Source: Escherichia coli (GTDB taxonomy: Bacteria > Pseudomonadota > Gammaproteobacteria > Enterobacterales > Enterobacteriaceae). Taken from it: a DNA stretch of 64,000 bases. Within the stretch, counting starts at the first letter, position 1; each line of letters opens with the position of its first letter. The DNA lies in assembly GCF_013315695.1 (NCBI RefSeq), contig NZ_CP054353.1. One strand, 5' to 3'. Made by a program: the position numbers and the translations under genes. Below the pieces are notes generated by a model. It was not told the origin of the DNA and did not search any database. It saw nothing but the letters and a program-made list of their open reading frames with translations. This document shows, one piece after another, positions 1,925 to 56,221 of the stretch.

Positions 1925-2341
1925 TTAATCAATAAACAAGGCGGGAGAAATGCCGAATCGCGTTGCCAGTTTTTTAGCGTGTTCCAGCGTTAATTTCCTC
2001 TTCCCGCTCAAAACGCGTGACACCATCGATTTACTGCCAATTTCCGGCAGATCGGAAAGGGTTAAACCATATTGATCCATAAGGGTACGAATCACAGCTT
2101 TACCGCCAGGCATGGCTTGCGCCATGGCATTAAATTCAGCAAATTCGGGCGCTGATTCTTCCCACGCGGTTATTTTGGCACACGCCAGATCCAGCAAGGG
2201 GTTTTCAGGATCGTTGAGCAGCAGATGATCTACCAGTTCCAGCGCCTGGGTGTATTGTTCCTCGTTCTGAATACCCGCCAGAAAAGGTGCCACAGCAGTT
2301 AGCTTTTCTCCTGCTTGCAAGATGTCGGCAATCGCAATCAT
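1925..2341 (-). CDS. higA: HigA antitoxin (HTH-XRE family)
   Basis: 138-aa ORF; translation recognised as HigA (YgjM). Confidence 0.85.
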   Translation of the reverse strand: MIAIADILQAGEKLTAVAPFLAGIQNEEQYTQALELVDHLLLNDPENPLLDLACAKITAWEESAPEFAEFNAMAQAMPGGKAVIRTLMDQYGLTLSDLPEIGSKSMVSRVLSGKRKLTLEHAKKLATRFGISPALFID

Positions 2342-2415
2342 TTTTTCCCCTTAGTACGATGAACGGCGGTAAAGAAATCGTATTCTTTATGCGTCATAAC
2401 TTCACGTATGTAGCA
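2338..2415 (-). pseudogene. higB: higB toxin 3' remnant (about 25 C-terminal codons only)
   Basis: Minus-strand frame reads ...CYIREVMTHKEYDFFTAVHRTKGKK-stop, with the stop overlapping the higA ATG (TCAT on plus strand); upstream sequence is unrelated and REP-containing, and there is no ORF of 60 aa or more. Confidence 0.5.
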
Positions 2416-43268: not shown

Positions 43269-44414
43269 TCACCCCGCGTTGCGCATTCCAATCGCCAGTG
43301 TCGCGGCGATATTACGTGAAGCACGGTAAATATTGTCATAAGCCCCGCGGAATGCTTCGTCCAACGTACCAATACTGGTCAATACGCTGAAGACCGCATC
43401 AATGCCATGCTGATGTACAACGCCAACATCATTGGTCAGGCTACCCGCAATGCCAATCACCGGTTTATGGTACTTTTTCGCCACGTTTGCGACGCCAATC
43501 GGAACCTTGCCGTGTATACTCTGGCTGTCAATACGCCCTTCACCGGTGATCACCAGCGTACAATCGTGAATATGTTCCTCCAGATTCAGCGCCGTAGTGA
43601 CGATTTCAATACCGCTTTTCAGTTCCGCACCAAGAAACGCCATTAGCGCCGCGCCCATACCACCCGCAGCTCCTGCGCCGGGGACATCTTTCACATCAAC
43701 ATGCAGCGCTTTTTTAATGACATCGGCATAGTGAGAGAGGTTATTGTCCAGCTCAACAATCATCGCTTCACTGGCTCCCTTTTGTGGGCCAAAGATGCGC
43801 GATGCGCCGTTATCACCCACCAGCGGATTGGTGACATCACAAGCGACGCGAATGACGCAATCTTTTAAGCGCGGATCGAGGCCGGAAATATCAATATCAT
43901 TCAGAGTATTAAGACTACCGCCGCCAAAACCAATTTCATTGCCGTTGGCGTCGCATAATTTCGCCCCCAGCGCCTGTACCATGCCTGCACCGCCATCATT
44001 TGTAGCGCTACCGCCAATGCCGATAATAATGTTTGTCGCGCCGCTCTCCAGCGCCTGCAGAATTAACTCGCCTGTGCCGCGTGAAGTGGTCACGAGTGGA
44101 TCACGTTTTTCCGCAGGTACCAGCTCCAGCCCACTGGCCGCCGCCATTTCAATAAACGCGGTTTTGCCATCGCCGGAGATCCCCCAACTGGCATTCACCT
44201 TCTCGCCCAGCGGCCCTGTAACCCAGGCGTGACGTTCGGAACCCTGGGTGGCTGCAATCATCGCTTCCACCGTTCCTTCGCCACCGTCGGCAACAGGAAC
44301 AGAAACGTACTGTGCATCAGGAAAAATTTCCCGAAATCCTTTTTCTATCGCCTGCGCAACCTCGCTGGCAGATAAACTTTCTTTATAAGAGTCTGGGGCG
44401 ATTACGATTTTCAT
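43269..44414 (-). CDS. garK: Glycerate 2-kinase
   Basis: ORF 43269..44495; conserved start MKIVIAPDSYKESLSA gives 381 aa. Confidence 0.9.
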   Translation of the reverse strand: MKIVIAPDSYKESLSASEVAQAIEKGFREIFPDAQYVSVPVADGGEGTVEAMIAATQGSERHAWVTGPLGEKVNASWGISGDGKTAFIEMAAASGLELVPAEKRDPLVTTSRGTGELILQALESGATNIIIGIGGSATNDGGAGMVQALGAKLCDANGNEIGFGGGSLNTLNDIDISGLDPRLKDCVIRVACDVTNPLVGDNGASRIFGPQKGASEAMIVELDNNLSHYADVIKKALHVDVKDVPGAGAAGGMGAALMAFLGAELKSGIEIVTTALNLEEHIHDCTLVITGEGRIDSQSIHGKVPIGVANVAKKYHKPVIGIAGSLTNDVGVVHQHGIDAVFSVLTSIGTLDEAFRGAYDNIYRASRNIAATLAIGMRNAG

Positions 44415-44510
44415 ACCTATGCCTGTTACCACATGACGCCGGAGGGCGTTTCTCTTATTCGGCCTGGATTCCAGGCCCGGATTGCAATACGCCATCCGGG
44501 CACGACGTCA

Positions 44511-45395
44511 TTAACGAGTAACTTCGACTTTCGCCAGTTTTTCGTAGTAGCACGCCAGGGCGCTATGATCTGCCGTTCCTAAACCATCTGCTCGCAGTGC
44601 CTGCATCATCTCCATAACCGCAGCTGTGAGCGGCAGTTGCGCGCCGACGCCGTGGGAAGTATCCAGCGCATTTGCCAGATCCTTAATATGCAGATCAATA
44701 CGGAAGCCCGGCTTGAAGTTGCGGTCCATCACCATCGGCGCTTTGGCATCCAGCACGGTACTGCCCGCCAGTCCACCGCGAATTGCCTGATACACCAAAT
44801 CCGGGTTAACGCCCGCTTTGGTTGCCAGCGTTAACGCTTCTGACATCGCGGCAATATTCAGCGCCACAATGACCTGATTCGCCAGTTTGGTAACGTTACC
44901 TGCACCAATTTCCCCGGTATGCACCACGGAACCCGCCATTGCTTTCATCAAATCATAGTATTTGTCGAAAATAGCCTTGTCGCCGCCCACCATCACTGAC
45001 AGTGTACCGTCGATAGCTTTCGGTTCACCGCCGCTCACCGGAGCATCCAGCATATCAATGCCTTTCGCTTTCAGCGCTTCGCTGATTTCACGGCTTGCCA
45101 GCGGTGCGATAGAACTCATATCGATCAATACCGTACCAGGCTTCGCGCCTTCAATAATGCCATTCTCACCCAGCGCCACCTCTTTCACATGAGGGGAGTT
45201 TGGCAGCATGGTTATGATGACGTCGCACTGTTCAGCGATCGCTTTAGCCGTAGAGGCTGTTTCTGCACCTGCAGCAATCACGTCAGCAATAGCTTCTGGG
45301 TTACGGTCAGCAACCACCAGCGAGTAACCTGCTTTCAGAAGGTTTTTACTCATTGGTTTACCCATAATCCCCAGGCCAATAAAACCAACTTTCAT
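44511..45395 (-). CDS. garR: Tartronate semialdehyde reductase
   Basis: ORF 44511..45410; start at MKVGFIGLGIMG (Rossmann fold) gives 294 aa; exact start plus or minus 2 codons. Confidence 0.85.
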   Translation of the reverse strand: MKVGFIGLGIMGKPMSKNLLKAGYSLVVADRNPEAIADVIAAGAETASTAKAIAEQCDVIITMLPNSPHVKEVALGENGIIEGAKPGTVLIDMSSIAPLASREISEALKAKGIDMLDAPVSGGEPKAIDGTLSVMVGGDKAIFDKYYDLMKAMAGSVVHTGEIGAGNVTKLANQVIVALNIAAMSEALTLATKAGVNPDLVYQAIRGGLAGSTVLDAKAPMVMDRNFKPGFRIDLHIKDLANALDTSHGVGAQLPLTAAVMEMMQALRADGLGTADHSALACYYEKLAKVEVTR

Positions 45396-45430
45396 AGTCA
45401 TATCAATCATCTCTCTTGTTGCGGTGGTGG

Positions 45431-46201
45431 TTATTTTTTAAAGGTATCAGCCAGTTTCTGAGTGGCAGAGCGGAAGACGCCGAGATCGCTGCCGACAGCC
45501 ACAAACGTCGCACCCCATTCCAGATAACGACGCGCATCGGCTTCGACCGGTGCGAGGATACCGCTGGGTTTGCCGTGCGCACTGGCACGGTTAAAAATAT
45601 GCTGAATTGCTTTTTGTACATCCGGGTGCGAGGCATTGCCGAGATGGCCGAATGCCGCAGCCAGATCGCTGGGGCCGACGAAGATACCGTCTACGCCTTC
45701 GGTAGCGGCAATGGCATCGACGTTATCTACGCCCTGCTGACTTTCTATCTGGACCAGAATGGTGATGTTCTTGTTCGACTGAGCGAAATAATCCGCCACG
45801 GTGCCAAACATATTGGCGCGGTGAGAAACGGAGACGCCGCGAATGCCTTCCGGTGGGTAACGGGTTGATGCCACCGCCTGCTCTGCTTCCTCTTTTGTTT
45901 CTACAAAAGGAATCAAGAAGTTATAGAAACCGATATCCAGAAGACGCTTTATAATTACCGGCTCGTTGGTCGGCACTCGCACTACTGGCGCGCTGGCGCT
46001 GCCTTTCAGGGCCATTAACTGCGGAATAAACGTGGAGATATCGTTTGGCGCATGTTCGCCATCCAGCACCAGCCAGTCAAACCCAGCCAAACCAAGAACT
46101 TCAGTGCTAATCGGGTTAGAGAGTGCTGACCAGCAACCAATTTGTACCTGTTTCGCAGCCAGTGCGGCTTTGAATTTATTCGGGAAAACATCGTTATTCA
46201 T
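45431..46201 (-). CDS. garL: 5-keto-4-deoxy-D-glucarate aldolase
   Basis: 256-aa ORF recognised as GarL. Confidence 0.9.
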
Positions 46202-46216
46202 CGCTTATACCTTTGC

Positions 46217-47551
46217 TTATTTCTGCAATTCCATACGTTTAATGTCGCCAACTACGAAGAGGTAGCAGACCATCGCCATCAGCGCTGAACATCCCACGAA
46301 AACCAGTGCTGCATTGAAGGAGTGCAGTTCACTTACCAGGTAGCCAATCACCAGTGGAGTGACAATGGAGGCAACATTGCCAAAGACGTTAAAGACGCCG
46401 CCGCAGAGACCAACAATCTCTTTCGGCGCGGTGTCAGAAATCACTGGCCAGCCCAGCGCACCAAATCCTTTGCCAAAGAAAGCCAGCGCCATCAGCATGA
46501 CCACCAGCGTGGTGTTGTTGGTGTAGTTACATAAGATGATGGTGGAAGCCAGCAACATTCCCAGCACAATCGGTAGCTTACGTGCCAGGGTCAGGGATAA
46601 ACCGCGTTTGATCAGATAATCCGAGAAGACACCTCCCAGCACGCCGCCCGCAAAGCCACACAGTGCCGGAATCGAGGCGACCAGACCCACTTTCAGAATC
46701 GACATGCCTTTTTCCTGCACCAGATAAATTGGGAACCAGGTGAGGAAGAACCAGGTGATGGTGTTGATAAAATATTGTCCGAAAAATACGCCCAGCATCA
46801 TGCGGTTAGAGAGCAATTGCTTGATGTAATGCAGTTTGGGACCGCTTGCTGCCGCACTGCCCGGCTTTTTGTGGTCCATATCGACCACCGCGCCATTTTC
46901 TGAGATAAACTTCAGCTCTTCCGCAGACATACGTGGGTGATCTGTCGGGTTATGAATCAACTTGATCCACAGCGCCGTCAGCACAAAACCAATCACCCCC
47001 ATAACGGTGAAGACGTGCTCCCAGCCCCAGGCGAAAGTCAGCCAGCCAAGCAGCGGCGAAAAGAGCGCCAGCGAGAAATATTGCGCCGAGTTAAAGATGG
47101 CGGAGGCAGTACCACGTTCTTTTGTCGGAAACCAGGCGGCGACAATACGGGCGTTCGCCGGGAATGATGGCGCTTCCGAGAAGCCGAGCATAAAGCGCAT
47201 AAAGAACATGGAGATCCCTGCCCAGGCCAGCGGGAACATATCAACAAAGCCTTGCAGGAAGGTGAACAGCGACCAGAAAAAGAGGCTGTAGGTGTAAACT
47301 TTTTTCGAGCCAAACTTATCAAGCAGCCAGCCGCCGGGAATTTGCATCAGCAGGTAGGCCCAGCCAAAAGCGGAGAAGATGTAACCCATCGAAACCGCAC
47401 TTAACTGCAACTCTTTTGCCACTTCGGTACCAGCAATAGACAGCGTTGCACGATCGGCGTAGTTAACGGCGGTAACAATAAAAATAATCAGTAATATTAA
47501 ATAGCGGGTATGCACGCCTTTCTTTTTTACGTCAACGGTGTCCAGAATCAT
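46217..47551 (-). CDS. garP: Galactarate/glucarate MFS transporter
   Basis: 444-aa polytopic ORF recognised as GarP. Confidence 0.9.
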   Translation of the reverse strand: MILDTVDVKKKGVHTRYLILLIIFIVTAVNYADRATLSIAGTEVAKELQLSAVSMGYIFSAFGWAYLLMQIPGGWLLDKFGSKKVYTYSLFFWSLFTFLQGFVDMFPLAWAGISMFFMRFMLGFSEAPSFPANARIVAAWFPTKERGTASAIFNSAQYFSLALFSPLLGWLTFAWGWEHVFTVMGVIGFVLTALWIKLIHNPTDHPRMSAEELKFISENGAVVDMDHKKPGSAAASGPKLHYIKQLLSNRMMLGVFFGQYFINTITWFFLTWFPIYLVQEKGMSILKVGLVASIPALCGFAGGVLGGVFSDYLIKRGLSLTLARKLPIVLGMLLASTIILCNYTNNTTLVVMLMALAFFGKGFGALGWPVISDTAPKEIVGLCGGVFNVFGNVASIVTPLVIGYLVSELHSFNAALVFVGCSALMAMVCYLFVVGDIKRMELQK

Positions 47552-47993
47552 TTTATTTACCTCGGGTACTTATGCTGATTTTTATTATTATGGGGAAGGT
47601 GTTATTTATGAGTTTTATTTATGCCGTTACGGCAATGAACTCGGGAATTAGTATAATCAGCGCGAGAATAATAATCATTGTGCAAATGCTAATTTAATTA
47701 ATACTATTTAAATATTATTTTGAGCATATGCACATAAGGTTGCGCGCTAAAGCACAGATTTGCGCTTTACCTTGCCGGGCGGCACTGCAATCCCTGAAAT
47801 GATTGACATTGATCACATTTCTGCGTTTAAACTCCTGACATTCTTATTTCACCCAATGAAGTAATTTATTTTTAAATGAGACCAGGTCCTCATTTTAATA
47901 ACCCCTGGCTGGAGAATATTGCACAATGGCCAACATCGAAATCAGACAAGAAACGCCAACTGCGTTTTATATAAAAGTTCACGACACAGATAA

Positions 47994-48002
47994 TGTGGCA
48001 AT
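47994..48002. repeat. IS1 target-site duplication, left copy (TGTGGCAAT)
   Basis: Same 9-mer directly flanks both IS1 ends. Confidence 0.8.
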
Positions 48003-48017
48003 GGTAATGACTCCAAC

Positions 48018-48521
48018 TTATTGATAGTGTTTTATGTTCAGATAATGCCCGATGACTTTGTCATGCAGCTCCACCGATTTTGAGAACGACAGCGACTTCC
48101 GTCCCAGCCGTGCCAGGTGCTGCCTCAGATTCAGGTTATGCCGCTCAATTCGCTGCGTATATCGCTTGCTGATTACGTGCAGCTTTCCCTTCAGGCGGGA
48201 TTCATACAGCGGCCAGCCATCCGTCATCCATATCACCACGTCAAAGGGTGACAGCAGGCTCATAAGACGCCCCAGCGTCGCCATAGTGCGTTCACCGAAT
48301 ACGTGCGCAACAACCGTCTTCCGGAGCCTGTCATACGCGTAAAACAGCCAGCGCTGGCGCGATTTAGCCCCGACATAGCCCCACTGTTCGTCCATTTCCG
48401 CGCAGACGATGACGTCACTGCCCGGCTGTATGCGCGAGGTTACCGACTGCGGCCTGAGTTTTTTAAGTGACGTAAAATCGTGTTGAGGCCAACGCCCATA
48501 ATGCGGGCTGTTGCCCGGCAT
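48018..48521 (-). CDS. insB: IS1 transposase InsB frame (expressed as InsAB' by -1 frameshift)
   Basis: 167-aa ORF identical to the one in copy 2. Confidence 0.9.
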
Positions 48522-48715
48522 CCAACGCCATTCATGGCCATATCAATGATTTTCTGGTGCGTACCGGGTTGAGAAGCGGTGTAAGTGAACTGCAGTTGCC
48601 ATGTTTTACGGCAGTGAGAGCAGAGATAGCGCTGATGTCCGGCGGTGCTTTTGCCGTTACGCACCACCCCGTCAGTAGCTGAACAGGAGGGACAGCTGAT
48701 AGAAACAGAAGCCAC
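48440..48715 (-). CDS. insA: IS1 InsA (transposition inhibitor / N-terminal part of transposase)
   Basis: 91-aa [24 protein letters not shown]... with zinc-finger Cys pairs. Confidence 0.9.
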
Positions 48716-48770
48716 TGGAGCACCTCAAAAACACAATCATACACTAAATCAGTAAGTTGGCAGCATCACC

Positions 48771-48779
48771 TGTGGCAAT
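48771..48779. repeat. IS1 target-site duplication, right copy (TGTGGCAAT)
   Basis: Matches 47994..48002. Confidence 0.8.
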
Positions 48780-50297
48780 TATTGTTAATGATAATGGCCT
48801 GAAAGCAGGAACGCGTTTTCCGGATGAGCTGGAATTAATTGAACATATTCCCCAGGGGCATAAAGTCGCATTGCTGGACATTCCAGCTAATGGTGAAATT
48901 ATTCGTTATGGCGAAGTGATTGGTTACGCCGTGCGCGCAATCCCACGCGGAAGCTGGATCGACGAATCAATGGTTGTACTACCGGAAGCGCCGCCGTTAC
49001 ACACGCTGCCACTGGCAACCAAAGTCCCGGAACCCTTACCGCCGCTGGAAGGATACACCTTTGAGGGCTATCGCAATGCCGATGGCAGCGTGGGCACTAA
49101 AAACCTGCTCGGCATCACCACCAGCGTCCACTGTGTAGCAGGCGTGGTGGACTATGTAGTAAAAATCATTGAACGCGATCTGCTACCGAAATACCCGAAC
49201 GTCGATGGCGTGGTGGGGCTGAATCATTTGTACGGCTGTGGCGTGGCGATTAACGCACCGGCGGCAGTTGTGCCTATTCGTACCATCCACAATATTTCGC
49301 TGAACCCTAACTTTGGCGGCGAAGTAATGGTGATTGGTCTGGGTTGTGAAAAGTTGCAGCCTGAGCGCCTGCTGACTGGAACGGATGATGTGCAAGCTAT
49401 TCCAGTAGAAAGCGCCAGCATTGTCAGTTTGCAGGATGAAAAGCATGTCGGCTTTCAGTCCATGGTCGAGGATATTTTGCAGGTCGCCGAACGCCATTTG
49501 CACAAACTGAATCGACGGCAGCGAGAAACCTGTCCGGCTTCAGAACTGGTTGTTGGCATGCAGTGCGGTGGCAGCGATGCGTTTTCTGGCGTAACGGCAA
49601 ACCCGGCGGTTGGGTATGCGTCTGATCTACTGGTGCGCTGCGGCGCAACGGTGATGTTTTCAGAAGTCACGGAAGTGCGTGACGCGATCCATCTGCTGAC
49701 ACCACGCGCAGTGAACGAAGAGGTCGGCAAACGGCTGCTGGAGGAGATGGAGTGGTACGATAACTATCTCAATATGGGAAAAACCGACCGCAGCGCCAAC
49801 CCTTCGCCGGGCAACAAGAAAGGCGGTCTGGCAAATGTGGTGGAGAAAGCGCTCGGCTCCATTGCTAAATCGGGTAAAAGTGCAATTGTTGAAGTGCTGT
49901 CGCCCGGCCAACGCCCGACTAAACGCGGATTAATTTACGCCGCGACGCCAGCCAGCGATTTTGTCTGTGGCACGCAACAGGTGGCTTCGGGTATCACCGT
50001 GCAAGTGTTTACGACCGGTCGCGGTACGCCGTACGGCCTGATGGCGGTACCCGTCATTAAAATGGCAACCCGCACCGAGCTGGCGAACCGCTGGTTTGAT
50101 TTAATGGATATTAATGCGGGCACCATCGCTACCGGCGAAGAAACTATTGAAGAGGTGGGCTGGAAGTTGTTCCACTTTATTCTCGACGTCGCCAGCGGGA
50201 AGAAGAAAACCTTCTCAGATCAATGGGGACTGCATAACCAGCTGGCGGTGTTTAACCCAGCACCGGTGACCTGATTTCTTTTGGAACGTCCCTCGCA

Positions 50298-50330
50298 AAA
50301 CATGGCCTTAGTGCCATGTTTTTATTGTTT
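50298..50330 (+). terminator. Rho-independent terminator after garD
   Basis: AAAACATGGC-CTTAGT-GCCATGTTTT perfect hairpin followed by TATTGTTT. Confidence 0.7.
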
Positions 50331-50422
50331 AAAGTCCCCACGTCCATTAATAATGCATTTGCATTACCTTAGTTCAAGCTTATAATTTGAGCAGAAAACA
50401 GGCTGTAAAAGGACAGTGAATC

Positions 50423-50758
50423 ATGCCCGCTAATGCTCGCTCTCACGCTGTACTGACCACTGAATCAAAGGTCACGATACGCGGACAAACAACTATCCCC
50501 GCGCCAGTGCGTGAGGCCTTAAAACTGAAGCCAGGCCTGGACAGCATTCATTACGAAATTCTGCCTGGTGGGCAAGTATTTATGTGCCGACTGGGAGATG
50601 AACAGGAGGATCATACTATGAATGCATTTTTGCGTTTTCTGGATGCAGATATCCAGAACAACCCGCAAATAACTCGTCCATTCAACATTCAACAAGGAAA
50701 GAAACTTGTCGCAGGCATGGACGTCAACATTGATGATGAGATTGGCGACGACGAATAA
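50423..50758 (+). CDS. prlF: PrlF (SohA) antitoxin, AbrB/SpoVT-fold
   Basis: 111-aa ORF with acidic C-terminus; stop overlaps the yhaV start (ATGA). Confidence 0.9.
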   Translation: MPANARSHAVLTTESKVTIRGQTTIPAPVREALKLKPGLDSIHYEILPGGQVFMCRLGDEQEDHTMNAFLRFLDADIQNNPQITRPFNIQQGKKLVAGMDVNIDDEIGDDE

Positions 50759-51222
50759 TGGATTTTCCACAAAGGGTTAATGGTTGGGCGCTATATGCTC
50801 ATCCCTGTTTTCAGGAAACCTACGACGCTTTAGTTGCCGAAGTTGAGACATTAAAGGGAAAAGATCCTGAAAATTATCAGAGAAAAGCCGCCACAAAGTT
50901 ATTGGCGGTAGTCCATAAAGTGATTGAGGAGCATATCACGGTCAATCCATCATCACCGGCATTCCGTCATGGCAAGTCGTTAGGCTCTGGGAAAAATAAA
51001 GACTGGTCACGGGTAAAATTTGGTGCTGGTCGTTATCGTCTCTTCTTTCGTTATAGTGAAAAAGAGAAAGTCATCATTCTGGGATGGATGAACGATGAAA
51101 ACACTCTGCGCACCTACGGTAAAAAAACAGATGCCTATACCGTATTCAGCAAAATGTTAAAAAGAGGACATCCTCCTGCCGACTGGGAAACCCTCACCCG
51201 AGAGACAGAAGAAACCCATTGA
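50758..51222 (+). CDS. yhaV: YhaV toxin (ribosome-dependent RNase)
   Basis: 154-aa ORF translationally coupled to prlF. Confidence 0.9.
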   Translation: MDFPQRVNGWALYAHPCFQETYDALVAEVETLKGKDPENYQRKAATKLLAVVHKVIEEHITVNPSSPAFRHGKSLGSGKNKDWSRVKFGAGRYRLFFRYSEKEKVIILGWMNDENTLRTYGKKTDAYTVFSKMLKRGHPPADWETLTRETEETH

Positions 51223-51276
51223 TGGTGTTCACAATGCCCGCCGAACGCATTCGTGTTGACCAGCGGGCACCCTTTC

Positions 51277-52086
51277 TCACTCCCCGACCAGAATCACTTC
51301 AACCCCAGCCTTTCGCAGTCCTTCCAGACTATCCGCAGGAATGCCTTCATCAACAATGATCATGTCGATACGTTGAGTATCAATGATCTTATGTAAACTG
51401 GAACGGTTGAACTTACTGGAATCGGTGACCACGATGATCCGTTCCGCAACTTCGCACATCCGACGGTTTAAACGGGCTTCATCTTCATTATGCGTGCTGA
51501 CGCCGCGCTCCAGATCGATCGCATCTACGCCAAGAAACAGCATATCGAAGTGGTAATTTTGCAGCGATTGTTCAGCCTGATCGCCGTAAAAAGATTGCGA
51601 CTGACGGCGCAAATGCCCGCCGGTCATCAGCAGCTCAACGCCTTCCGCTTCCAGCAACGCATTAGCCACGTTCATACCGTTGGTCATCGCAATTACGTCA
51701 GTGTGCTTGCGCATCAGACGAGCAATCTCAAAAGTGGTGGTCCCGGAATCGAGGATTACCCGATGACCTGGCTGAATCAACTCAACGGCAGCTTTCGCAA
51801 CGCTGCGTTTCATTGCGGTGTTCAGCGCGCTTTTATCTTCCACTGATGGCTCGACTGACGGCGTCGTGCTATCGCAGATCAACGCGCCGCCATAGGCACG
51901 CACAGCGATCCCCTGCTTTTCCAGAAACGCCAGATCGTTGCGGATCGTCACAGTAGATACACCATACAACGCCGATAGATCATTAACTTGCACACTTCCT
52001 TGCTGGCGCAGGCGTTGAATAATCTGCTCTCGTCGCTCACTGGTGCCTGTCACTCGCTTCTCGCCTGAAGCGTCGGTATTACTCAT
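51277..52086 (-). CDS. agaR: DeoR-family repressor of the aga regulon
   Basis: 269-aa ORF with N-terminal HTH, divergent from kbaZ. Confidence 0.9.
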
Positions 52087-52334
52087 AGTAAGTCCTTTCG
52101 TAAAACTTTCGTTTCATTTCGTTTTGCCTATTAACGCCTTTCTATTAAGCAAATGCAAGCCCACCTTACCCATTGGCGCAAGCTACTCTCGTTTCAGTGG
52201 CTTTCATTATGTTTCTTTTGTGAATCAGATCAGAAAACCATTATCTTTCGTTTTATTTTTATCTCACCATGGCGCAGTATCAACTGAAACAAAACGAAAG
52301 ATTAATATCGCAGTAATCTGAACTGGAGAGGAAA

Positions 52335-53615
52335 GTGAAACATCTGACAGAAATGGTGAGACAGCACAAAGAGGGCAAAACAAATGGGATTTATGCCGTT
52401 TGTTCCGCACATCCGCTGGTGCTGGAAGCTGCAATCCGCTACGCCAGTGCAAACCAAACGCCGTTACTGATTGAAGCAACCTCCAATCAGGTGGACCAGT
52501 TCGGCGGTTATACCGGAATGACGCCCGCCGATTTTCGCGGCTTTGTTTGTCAGCTCGCCGACTCGTTGAATTTCCCACAGGATGCGTTGATTCTGGGTGG
52601 CGACCATCTGGGGCCAAACCGCTGGCAAAACCTGCCTGCCGCTCAGGCAATGGCCAATGCCGATGATTTGATTAAAAGCTACGTGGCGGCAGGATTCAAA
52701 AAAATTCACCTTGATTGCAGCATGTCCTGTCAGGACGATCCGATTCCCTTAACTGATGACATCGTGGCCGAACGCGCCGCTCGTCTGGCGAAAGTGGCGG
52801 AAGAAACCTGCCGTGAACATTTTGGCGCGGCCGATCTGGAGTATGTCATTGGTACCGAAGTACCGGTACCTGGCGGCGCGCATGAAACCTTAAGCGAGCT
52901 GGCGGTCACCACGCCGGATGCCGCCCGCGCCACGCTGGAAGCCCATCGTCACGCCTTTGAAAAGCAAGGTCTGAGTGCCATCTGGCCACGCATCATTGCT
53001 CTGGTGGTACAACCCGGCGTCGAATTCGATCACACCAACGTTATTGATTATCAGCCCGTCAAAGCGACCGCCTTAAGCCAGATGGTCGAAAACTACGAAA
53101 CGCTGATTTTCGAAGCGCACTCTACCGATTACCAAACGCCGCAATCGCTGCGCCAGCTGGTGATTGACCACTTTGCCATTCTGAAAGTTGGCCCGGCGCT
53201 GACCTTCGCCCTGCGTGAAGCTCTGTTCTCTCTGGCGGCGATTGAAGAAGAACTGGTACCAGCAAAAGCCTGTTCTGGTCTGCGTCAGGTGCTGGAAAAC
53301 GTGATGCTCGACCGCCCGGAATACTGGCAAAGCCACTACCACGGTGACGGCAACGCGCGTCGTCTGGCGCGTGGTTATAGCTACTCGGATCGCGTGCGCT
53401 ATTACTGGCCGGACAGCCAGATTGATGACGCTTTCGCTCATCTGGTTCGTAATCTGGCGGATTCACCAATTCCGCTACCGCTGATCAGCCAGTATTTGCC
53501 GCTGCAGTACGTGAAAGTTCGCTCCGGCGAGCTGCAGCCAACGCCACGGGAACTCATTATCAACCATATTCAGGACATCCTGGCGCAGTACCACACAGCC
53601 TGTGAAGGCCAATAA
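52335..53615 (+). CDS. kbaZ: Tagatose-1,6-bisphosphate aldolase accessory subunit
   Basis: 426-aa ORF, GTG start, recognised as KbaZ/AgaZ. Confidence 0.85.
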
Positions 53616-53637
53616 GCAAAACAAAGAGGAACACGCT

Positions 53638-54111
53638 ATGCCAAATATTGTTTTAAGTCGGATTGATGAACGCTTGATTCACGGTCAGGTCGGCGTTCAG
53701 TGGGTCGGATTTGCGGGGGCAAATCTGGTGCTGGTAGCCAACGACGAGGTTGCCGAAGATCCGGTACAACAAAACCTGATGGAAATGGTACTGGCAGAAG
53801 GGATCGCCGTACGTTTCTGGACGCTGCAAAAAGTCATCGACAACATTCATCGCGCCGCCGATCGACAGAAAATCCTGCTGGTTTGTAAAACACCTGCCGA
53901 TTTCCTGACGCTGGTGAAAGGTGGCGTTCCGGTGAATCGCATTAACGTTGGCAATATGCACTACGCCAATGGCAAGCAACAAATCGCCAAAACGGTTTCT
54001 GTGGATGCGGGTGATATCGCAGCATTTAACGACCTGAAAGCCGCTGGGGTGGAATGCTTCGTTCAGGGCGTCCCGACAGAGCCTGCTGTGGACCTCTTTA
54101 AATTACTTTGA
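53638..54111 (+). CDS. agaV: PTS N-acetylgalactosamine-specific IIB component
   Basis: ORF 53602..54111; start at MPNIVLSRIDERLIHGQVG gives 157 aa. Confidence 0.85.
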   Translation: MPNIVLSRIDERLIHGQVGVQWVGFAGANLVLVANDEVAEDPVQQNLMEMVLAEGIAVRFWTLQKVIDNIHRAADRQKILLVCKTPADFLTLVKGGVPVNRINVGNMHYANGKQQIAKTVSVDAGDIAAFNDLKAAGVECFVQGVPTEPAVDLFKLL

Positions 54112-54121
54112 GGGATTCATC

Positions 54122-54901
54122 ATGGAAATCAGTCTGTTGCAGGCATTCGCGTTGGGCATTATCGCCTTTATCGCTGGCCTGGATATGTTTAACGGCCTAA
54201 CCCATATGCACCGCCCGGTGGTCCTCGGCCCGTTGGTCGGACTGGTACTTGGCGATCTGCATACCGGTATTTTAACCGGCGGTACGCTGGAACTGGTGTG
54301 GATGGGGCTGGCCCCGCTGGCGGGCGCACAGCCGCCTAACGTGATTATCGGTACTATCGTCGGCACGGCGTTTGCCATTACTACTGGCGTGAAACCCGAT
54401 GTCGCGGTCGGTGTCGCCGTACCTTTCGCTGTCGCAGTACAGATGGGGATTACCTTCCTGTTCTCGGTGATGTCCGGCGTGATGTCCCGCTGCGACCGGA
54501 TGGCGGAGAACGCCGATACACGCGGCATTGAACGCGTGAACTATCTGGCACTGCTGGCACTCGGCACGTTCTATTTTCTCTGCGCTTTCCTGCCTATCTA
54601 CTTCGGCGCAGAACATGCAAAAACCATCATTGATGTCCTGCCGCAACGATTAATCGACGGCCTCGGCGTCGCGGGCGGCATCATGCCAGCAATCGGTTTT
54701 GCCGTGTTGCTGAAAATCATGATGAAAAACGTCTACATCCCCTACTTCATCCTGGGCTTTGTTGCCGCAGCCTGGCTCAAGTTACCGGTGTTGGCTATTG
54801 CTGCCGCTGCGCTGGCGATGGCGCTGATCGACTTGCTGCGTAAATCTCCTGAACCGACTCAACCTGCGGCACAGAAAGAGGAATTTGAAGATGGCATCTA
54901 A
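54122..54901 (+). CDS. agaW: PTS GalNAc-specific IIC component (full length)
   Basis: 259-aa polytopic ORF, uninterrupted. Confidence 0.85.
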   Translation: MEISLLQAFALGIIAFIAGLDMFNGLTHMHRPVVLGPLVGLVLGDLHTGILTGGTLELVWMGLAPLAGAQPPNVIIGTIVGTAFAITTGVKPDVAVGVAVPFAVAVQMGITFLFSVMSGVMSRCDRMAENADTRGIERVNYLALLALGTFYFLCAFLPIYFGAEHAKTIIDVLPQRLIDGLGVAGGIMPAIGFAVLLKIMMKNVYIPYFILGFVAAAWLKLPVLAIAAAALAMALIDLLRKSPEPTQPAAQKEEFEDGI

Positions 54902-55769
54902 TCAAACTACCCTGCCGAACGTCAGTGAAAACGAAGAAACACTGCTGACTGGCGTCAATGAAAACGTGTATGAAGATCAGAGTATTGGCGCGGAGCTGAC
55001 GAAAAAAGATATCAACCGCGTCGCCTGGCGTTCCATGCTGTTACAAGCGTCTTTTAACTACGAACGTATGCAGGCTTCCGGCTGGTTGTACGGTCTGCTG
55101 CCTGCTCTGAAAAAGATCCACACTAATAAACGCGACCTGGCGCGCGCCATGAAGGGGCATATGGGTTTCTTCAATACCCATCCGTTTCTGGTGACGTTTG
55201 TTATCGGCATTATCCTTGCGATGGAGCGTTCTAAGCAGGACGTTAACAGTATTCAGAGCACCAAAATTGCCGTCGGTGCGCCGCTCGGCGGGATTGGCGA
55301 TGCGATGTTCTGGCTAACGCTACTGCCGATTTGTGGCGGGATAGGCGCAAGCCTCGCGCTACAAAGCTCTATTCTTGGCGCAGTCGTCTTTATTGTGCTG
55401 TTCAACGTGGCGCATCTCGGTTTGCGTTTTGGTCTTGCACATTATGCTTACCGCATGGGCGTGGCGGCGATTCCACTCATTAAAGCAAATACCAAAAAAG
55501 TCGGCCATGCGGCATCTATCGTTGGGATGACGGTAATCGGCGCGCTGGTGGCAACCTATGTTCGTTTAAGCACCACGCTGGAAATCACAGCGGGCGACGC
55601 AGTGGTTAAGTTACAGGCTGATGTTATCGACAAACTGATGCCTGCCTTCTTACCACTGGTCTACACCCTGACCATGTTCTGGCTGGTACGCCGCGGCTGG
55701 AGTCCGCTGCGCCTGATTGCGATTACCGTGGTTCTCGGCATCGTCGGTAAATTCTGCCATTTCCTTTAA
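54891..55769 (+). CDS. agaE: PTS GalNAc-specific IID component
   Basis: ORF 54885..55769; ATG at 54891 (MASNQTTLPN) gives 292 aa. Confidence 0.85.
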   Translation: MASNQTTLPNVSENEETLLTGVNENVYEDQSIGAELTKKDINRVAWRSMLLQASFNYERMQASGWLYGLLPALKKIHTNKRDLARAMKGHMGFFNTHPFLVTFVIGIILAMERSKQDVNSIQSTKIAVGAPLGGIGDAMFWLTLLPICGGIGASLALQSSILGAVVFIVLFNVAHLGLRFGLAHYAYRMGVAAIPLIKANTKKVGHAASIVGMTVIGALVATYVRLSTTLEITAGDAVVKLQADVIDKLMPAFLPLVYTLTMFWLVRRGWSPLRLIAITVVLGIVGKFCHFL

Positions 55770-55786
55770 ATACAATGAGGTATTAG

Positions 55787-56221
55787 ATGTTAAGTATTAT
55801 TTTGACAGGGCATGGCGGATTTGCCAGCGGCATGGAAAAAGCAATGAAGCAAATTCTCGGTGAGCAATCGCAGTTTATCGCCATCGATTTTCCGGAAACC
55901 TCAAGCACCGCGCTGCTTACATCGCAGCTTGAAGAGGCCATCGTCCAACTGGATTGTGAAGACGGCATTGTTTTTCTGACGGATTTGCTGGGCGGCACGC
56001 CGTTTCGCGTAGCTTCAACGCTGGCGATGCAAAAACCGGGCTGTGAAGTGATCACCGGCACCAATTTGCAACTGCTACTGGAGATGGTGCTGGAGCGCGA
56101 AGGGTTAAGCGGTGAAGAGTTCCGTGTGCAGGCGCTGGAGTGTGGACACCGTGGGCTGACCAGTCTGGTGGACGAGTTAGGCCGCTGCCATGAAGAATGT
56201 CCGGTCGAGGAAGGAATATGA
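55787..56221 (+). CDS. agaF: PTS GalNAc-specific IIA component
   Basis: 144-aa ORF recognised as AgaF. Confidence 0.85.
   Translation: MLSIILTGHGGFASGMEKAMKQILGEQSQFIAIDFPETSSTALLTSQLEEAIVQLDCEDGIVFLTDLLGGTPFRVASTLAMQKPGCEVITGTNLQLLLEMVLEREGLSGEEFRVQALECGHRGLTSLVDELGRCHEECPVEEGI

Follow-up and report, generated by a model that had tools for sequence, protein, structure and literature searches.

Organization of the garD locus

The window analyzed here, a 64-kb stretch of Escherichia coli DNA, contains garP, garL, garR and garK as open, syntenic reading frames divergent from garD, the context expected of the GarD family. garD as an uninterrupted gene is not found in this strain because a complete IS1 lies inside its coding sequence (Table 1). 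Read directly from the sequence, garD begins with an ATG at 47926, from which 25 complete codons (MANIEIRQETPTAFYIKVHDTDNVA) run to 48000. IS1 interrupts codon 26 (ATT) after its second base, that is, after garD nt 77, and the native frame runs on into the element and stops at 48022–48024 to give a 32-aa peptide whose tail before the stop reads MVMTPTY. In this way, 768 bp of antisense-coding IS1 come to lie between the 5' end of garD, with its promoter, ribosome-binding site, start codon, and 25 codons, and the 498 codons that remain. The first-pass annotation had described an IS1 disrupting garD after codon 25, with the garD start running straight into the IS1 terminus and the gene resuming beyond the element. 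That description is confirmed, with native garD sequence reaching 48002 and the remainder starting at 48780; the one refinement is that the break falls within codon 26.

Table 1 Coordinates of features at the garD locus and its surroundings in the 64-kb window.
Feature	Position	Strand	Remarks
garK	43269–44414	−	Intact
garR	44511–45401	−	Intact
garL	45431–46201	−	Intact
garP	46217–47551	−	Intact
garD 5' stub	47926–48024	+	25 native codons, split codon 26, 7 IS1-encoded codons, TGA
Left target-site duplication	47994–48002		TGTGGCAAT (garD nt 69–77)
IS1, complete	48003–48770	−	768 bp; transposase genes opposite to garD
IRR	48003–48025		
insB' frame	48018–48521	−	Joined to insA by −1 frameshift
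insA	48440–48715	−	91 aa; N-terminal zinc-binding domain
Private substitution in garD IS1	48735		A on the plus strand versus C in 18/18 other copies
IRL	48748–48770		
Hybrid in-frame ORF	48757–50274	+	505 aa; TTG start within IRL; MAASP + GarD 24–523
Hybrid promoter-like site	48757–48785	+	TTGGCA-N17-TATTGT; outward −35 in IRL, −10 in garD; 9/12 consensus
Right target-site duplication	48771–48779		TGTGGCAAT
garD 3' part (nt 78–1572)	48780–50274	+	Last base of codon 26 + codons 27–523
Terminator-like hairpin 3' of garD	50299–50328	+	AAAACATGGC-cttagt-GCCATGTTTT, then T-rich tail; read directly from the sequence
Second IS1 (agaB)	59866–60633	−	Same orientation as garD copy

The element is bounded by a 9-bp target duplication, also noted in the first-pass annotation, which proved to be perfect. 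On its plus strand, the 64-kb window has no copy of the 9-mer besides these two, and the probability of two given 9-mers agreeing by chance is ~4e-6. Excision of IS1 together with one repeat, done by script on the window, restores an uninterrupted ORF of 1572 nt encoding 523 aa. No further lesion was found in the 3' part of garD, which shows 0 mismatches to garD of E. coli MSB1_4I, the closest complete genome. The AT content of the target region is 63–65% compared with 46.9% for the whole of garD; the first 100 nt of the gene are its most AT-rich part (63% AT), and the garP–garD intergenic region is 64% AT. IS1 reportedly prefers AT-rich targets, and the composition of the garD target region is consistent with this preference.

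With TIGR03248, the equivalog model for galactarate dehydratase (cutoff 730.85), the reconstructed GarD reaches 936.8 bits, and it aligns end to end (residues 1–523) with PDB 6U7L, while PDB 3LAZ represents the isolated N-terminal domain (residues 1–96). Its Pfam architecture comprises three domains: PF08666 (SAF) at residues 22–92, PF04295 at 122–270, and PF20629 (C-terminal) at 279–520. The coding break after residue 25 therefore falls at the start of SAF, the first conserved domain of the protein. Family models begin at GarD residue 15, and residues 14–23 form the first conserved aligned segment. The gene is near-universal in the species, being present with at least 80% coverage in 5,361 of 5,426 complete E. 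coli genomes.

The first-pass annotation also held that garPLRK is kept, and the surroundings bear this out. All four ORFs are open. Window positions 43523–48002 are 100% identical to MSB1_4I, where the annotation shows garP, garL, and garR as intact genes, and garK lies in a region with 3 substitutions relative to that genome, 0 of them in garK itself. On the other side of the insertion, the terminator-like hairpin after garD suggests that the gene is monocistronic, so that no polar effect would be expected on prlF-yhaV. Glucarate growth depends on gudD and cdaR, both of which are located outside the window.

The garD IS1 element

The inserted sequence has the length and ends of the IS1 family, 768 bp with ~23-bp imperfect termini beginning GGT(A/G)ATG (GGTAATGACTCCAACTTATTGAT and GGTGATGCTGCCAACTTACTGAT in full), and its terminal inverted repeats (GGTAATGACTCC... 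and GGTGATGCTGCC...) agree at 18 of 23 positions. Its 9-bp duplication is within the family range of 8–11 bp and is matched by a single copy of the 9-mer at empty sites. A single A6C frameshift motif is present at 48458–48464 (element position 307), and the InsAB' fusion ORF is open over 232 aa, scoring 245 bits against the NCBIfam IS1 family transposase model NF033558 (cutoff 100). From its reading frames, the coding capacity of this transposase is intact.

Compared with a classical IS1 simple insertion, the garD copy is alike in size, terminal repeats, the insA/insB' arrangement with A6C, 9-bp duplication, and AT-rich target. It differs in its site, garD nt 77, which is vacant in 5,426 complete genomes, and in the private base at 48735. 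This change directly adjoins the TATGAT −10-like box of the insA promoter region. An exact match to the last 131 nt of the garD IS1 was found at none of ~70,000 IS1 places in the complete-genome set. The garD IS1 shares 99.7% identity with the other IS1 copy of the window, located in agaB. The two copies differ at two positions, each change being private to one of them (in the agaB copy it results in InsA A13V), which rules out the agaB IS1 as the direct parent of the garD copy.

Empty site and age of the insertion

MSB1_4I (NZ_LR898874.1) was recovered from a rectal swab in Australia and its garD is annotated as intact. Once IS1 and one repeat are excised, window positions 43523–64000 align gap-free with this genome over 19,701 bp and differ by 4 substitutions; positions 1–44918 likewise align without gaps and differ by 3. 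Over the whole 64 kb, there are 7 substitutions and 0 indels across ~63.2 kb besides the 777-bp insertion. Because this insertion is the sole structural difference from MSB1_4I in 64 kb, it is recent. The comparison with other strains that the first-pass annotation had proposed was run, and the empty garD site was recovered in MSB1_4I and in all 11 comparator loci checked, each carrying the empty-site 25-mer with a single copy of the 9-mer (11/11). Direct IS1 transposition, as originally put forward, is upheld by the completeness of the element, the perfect 9-bp duplication, the exact restoration of the ORF, and a near-isogenic relative that differs structurally only in having the site empty.

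The identical left junction is absent from the 5,426 complete E. coli genomes searched, in which a 140-nt query returned two-piece matches only, corresponding to different sites. Judged by these comparisons, the allele at garD nt 77 is recent, private to its lineage, and outside the 5,426-genome set. Searching for proteins identical to the 505-aa hybrid product or to the 32-aa stub returned no record, and our literature search found no paper connecting garD with IS1.

A second IS1 in agaB and the origin of the pair

The agaB copy of IS1 lacks a target duplication and stands in place of 296 bp, namely agaB nt 1–266 together with the 30 nt preceding the gene. It is common to MSB1_4I and is thus older than the garD copy. 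IS1-mediated adjacent deletions leave the element without direct repeats (Turlan & Chandler 1995, summarised in PMC9330008), and the structure at agaB bears the signature of such an event. The two direct IS1 copies bracket 11.1 kb of unique DNA (48771–59865) containing garD', prlF-yhaV, agaR, kbaZ, agaVWEF, nagA/agaA, agaS, and kbaY. On the strength of this arrangement, the bracketed segment could be deleted in the future.

Two other accounts of how IS1 came to lie in garD were weighed against direct transposition. A pair of IS1 elements in direct orientation flanking 11.1 kb resembles a Tn9-type composite, in which both copies and the segment between them would have arrived as one unit. This is scarcely credible and the composite origin was rejected on the outer flanks and on MSB1_4I: the outer flanks show no duplication (TGTGGCAAT versus ACAAACGGT), and MSB1_4I has the agaB copy alone, so the copies arrived separately and at different times rather than being mobilised as a unit. 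The garD IS1 moreover has a duplication of its own, and the genes between the two copies keep the order native to the chromosome. The other account is an assembly artefact, with IS1 misplaced into garD during repeat resolution. The lineage is IS1-rich (at least 40 IS1 places in MSB1_4I), repeats are a classic source of misassembly, and the junction occurs in no other genome. A misplaced repeat, however, would yield neither a perfect 9-bp duplication nor flanks in exact register. The private SNP of the garD copy indicates that it is not a collapsed consensus, and the remaining window is colinear with MSB1_4I. We regard an artefact as very improbable, and retain direct transposition of a single IS1 copy into garD as the origin of the allele.

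Other IS1 alleles at the garD locus

Insertions of IS1 near this site were surveyed in the 5,426 complete E. coli genomes with chimeric queries made of a 300-bp flank, IS1, and a second 300-bp flank. The survey covered garD nt −223 to +368 only, its genome counts may include clonal relatives, and two control sites were queried in the same manner. IS1 was detected within 300 bp of the garD site in 27 other genomes, 16 in the same orientation and 11 in the opposite one. The same query at the control sites, uxaC-exuT/exuT 5' (12978) and kbaZ 5' (52411), gave 0/5,426 each. A rough expectation under uniform density, ~8 genome-instances per 600 bp, was replaced by these two direct controls. As far as two controls and counts uncorrected for clonal inheritance can indicate, these results support the garP–garD/garD 5' region as a recurrent IS1 target.

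Eighteen representative loci with IS1 were fetched and mapped relative to the garD ATG. Simple insertions with 8–9 bp duplications were located at −643 (inside garP), at −261, −146, −86, and −34 in the garP–garD intergenic region, and at +164 and +216 inside garD. Other IS1 junctions have no duplication and join garD to other genes. The partner is agaD for nt 107, a point just upstream of agaB for nt 161, a point just upstream of yraH for nt 178, the yraJ usher for nt 121, 124, 144, 211, and 216, and the yraI chaperone for nt 262 and 1548. An intergenic deletion from −179 to −48 is present in one genome. Many of the IS1 junctions at this locus are IS1-associated deletions fusing the 5' end of garD to aga or yra genes.

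Alleles such as those of HUM3355 (nt 216), Z1323CEC0012 (nt 164), EC5931 (−146), and Ecol_AZ147 (−261) share with ours the gene, the element, and duplications of 8–9 bp. Where IS1 lies within garD, the gene is recorded as an incomplete pseudogene, and where it lies upstream, garD is recorded as intact. These alleles differ from the present one in position, orientation, and isoform (IS1A, IS1B, IS1X2, and a 93%-identical variant), and the occurrence of several IS1 isoforms at the locus marks them as independent events. The likeness to IS1 adjacent deletions is seen in the agaB copy of our window and in the single IS1 elements that elsewhere join garD nt 107–262 to agaD, agaB, or yraH/I/J. The garD copy is different in being a simple insertion, for which a deletion is only a possible future outcome.

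We tentatively hypothesize that the garP–garD intergenic region and garD nt ~1–260 form an IS1 landing zone that also serves as the fixed endpoint of repeated deletions, and that the window represents a two-IS1 intermediate preceding such a deletion, a proposal we consider possible but doubtful. If it is true, the deletions take out garD, prlF-yhaV, the aga (N-acetylgalactosamine/galactosamine) cluster, and part of the yra fimbrial operon, and the pattern would stem either from a strong structural hotspot or, in some niches, from selection acting against the catabolism of galactarate and amino sugars.

Predicted consequences for galactarate dehydratase

In the account that fits the sequence best, a copy of IS1 transposed into garD with the staggered 9-bp cut that characterises IS1, at garD nt 69–77. 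Translation from the native start would end 7 codons into IS1 with release of the 32-aa peptide, and ~750 nt of untranslated antisense IS1 RNA would then precede the remaining garD, in which no persuasive promoter or ribosome-binding site was recognised. IS1 insertions are classically polar. We infer polarity across the IS1 in garD from the long untranslated stretch. Given this organization, the allele is very probably null for galactarate dehydratase, with the shared downstream garP, garL, garR, and garK intact, and the predicted phenotype is loss of growth on galactarate with growth on glucarate retained.

The first-pass annotation had allowed for a truncated GarD made from the IS1 end. The reading frame for such a product does exist: the hybrid ORF of 505 aa opens at an in-frame TTG (48757), and a GTG at 48772, also in frame, opens one of 500 aa. 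The element end also provides the promoter-like site listed in Table 1, and a −10 at the right distance from an IS1 end is documented to yield a hybrid promoter (PMC8764528; PMC9330008). By read-through or from such a promoter, an N-terminally altered GarD, either the 505-aa hybrid or a shorter form, might be produced in amounts sufficient for galactarate use. Several features argue against a leaky allele of this kind. A transcript from the hybrid site would begin at ~48792, downstream of both early starts, and the later in-frame starts at L57 (48871), 48916, 48931, and M90 (48970) would drop 56–89 residues of the N-terminal (SAF) domain. No Shine-Dalgarno sequence was found ahead of TTG 48757 or GTG 48772, and none of the starts has a good one. 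A consensus scan returned 4 promoter-like matches in the region compared with 3.1 ± 2.0 in shuffles, which is the background frequency. The hybrid ORF, in addition, is without residues 14–23, the first conserved segment in the family models. A functional truncated GarD is unlikely in view of the missing ribosome-binding site and of a promoter-like site that would start transcripts beyond the TTG, and the 505-aa hybrid ORF is probably not expressed. Only the existence of the frame thus stands from the suggestion of a truncated product, and we consider a leaky insertion improbable compared with a null allele.

Biological implications

The garD insertion is a new allele produced by an ordinary IS1 insertion mutation, and it leaves knowledge of IS1 or GarD unchanged. 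Its sole mildly unexpected aspect is the recurrence of IS1 hits and linked deletions at garD, a modest pattern to which this allele adds one data point. As a strain marker, garD::IS1 cleanly distinguishes this isolate from MSB1_4I, its sibling. In a gut that is inflamed or has been exposed to antibiotics, Enterobacteriaceae make use of two oxidised sugars, galactarate and glucarate (PMC11775122). The strain is predicted to be unable to use galactarate while keeping the shared downstream pathway intact, and a null garD allele could slightly change its fitness in the gut.

IS1 near the garD site in other genomes

Among complete E. coli genomes, 27 of 5,426 carry an IS1 within 300 bp of the garD site (window 47703-49070 compared), a count that ignores kinship, and at each of two control sites in the window IS1 was found in 0 of 5,426. 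The 27 genomes are split by orientation, 16 one way and 11 the opposite way, and the insertions compared near garD (loci L001, L002 and L012-L027 from other E. coli genomes) lie at many different positions and represent several IS1 isoforms. The same nucleotide, garD nt 216, is adjoined by IS1 in HUM3355 (L002) and YY76-1 (L026) in opposite orientations, with GGCGAAGTG as the left flank at these junctions; one of the pair is a simple insertion, and the other marks a deletion that has joined garD to the yraJ usher. Position 216 may be a preferred cut site.

The window's own garD copy carries a plus-strand A at 48735 that is absent from 18 other IS1 copies examined and adjoins TATGAT, the -10-like box in the promoter region of insA. 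The last 131 nt of this copy have no exact match among ~70,000 IS1 places. The A could have arisen by mutation after the insertion, come from a rare variant of the donor, or reflect a sequencing error.

A second IS1 in agaB and the intervening segment

The window's second IS1 replaces 296 bp, comprising agaB nt 1-266 and 30 nt upstream of the gene, so that agaB is truncated. This insertion is common to the window and the sibling genome E. coli MSB1_4I, and A13V in its InsA is a change private to the agaB copy. Together with the garD copy it forms a direct pair (window 48003-60633) flanking 11.1 kb. Recombination between the two would yield a garD'-IS1-agaB' deletion, a product resembling the junctions at L012-L018, L026 and L027 elsewhere in E. 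coli, where garD nt 107-262 is joined via a single IS1 to aga or yra genes.

Features of the window, with position, strand or orientation, and content
Feature	Position	Strand or orientation	Content or state
higA antitoxin	1925-2341	minus	intact
higB toxin	2338-2415		26-codon remnant only
Fimbrial cluster genes	14418-19518		chaperone, CS1-type major subunit, TcfC-like usher, CfaE/CblD-family tip adhesin
Segment between IS1 copies (11.1 kb)			garD 3' part, prlF-yhaV, agaR, kbaZ, agaVWEF, nagA/agaA, agaS, kbaY
Second IS1	59866-60633	same as garD copy	without target duplication

Other loci in the window

A CS1-type fimbrial cluster of four genes lies between exuT and exuR, which are neighbours in K-12; the gene names follow those annotated in MSB1_4I, whose sequence here is nearly identical. 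Calls for higA and higB (window 1925-2415) were likewise mapped onto the window from the MSB1_4I annotation, and higA looks like an orphan antitoxin.

IS1 load of the lineage

Because MSB1_4I (L011/L028, NZ_LR898874.1) shows at least 40 IS1 places, the lineage that it shares with the window carries at least that many copies. This is far above the median of ~11 IS1 places per genome, which suggests that an IS1 expansion is under way in the lineage of the window and MSB1_4I.
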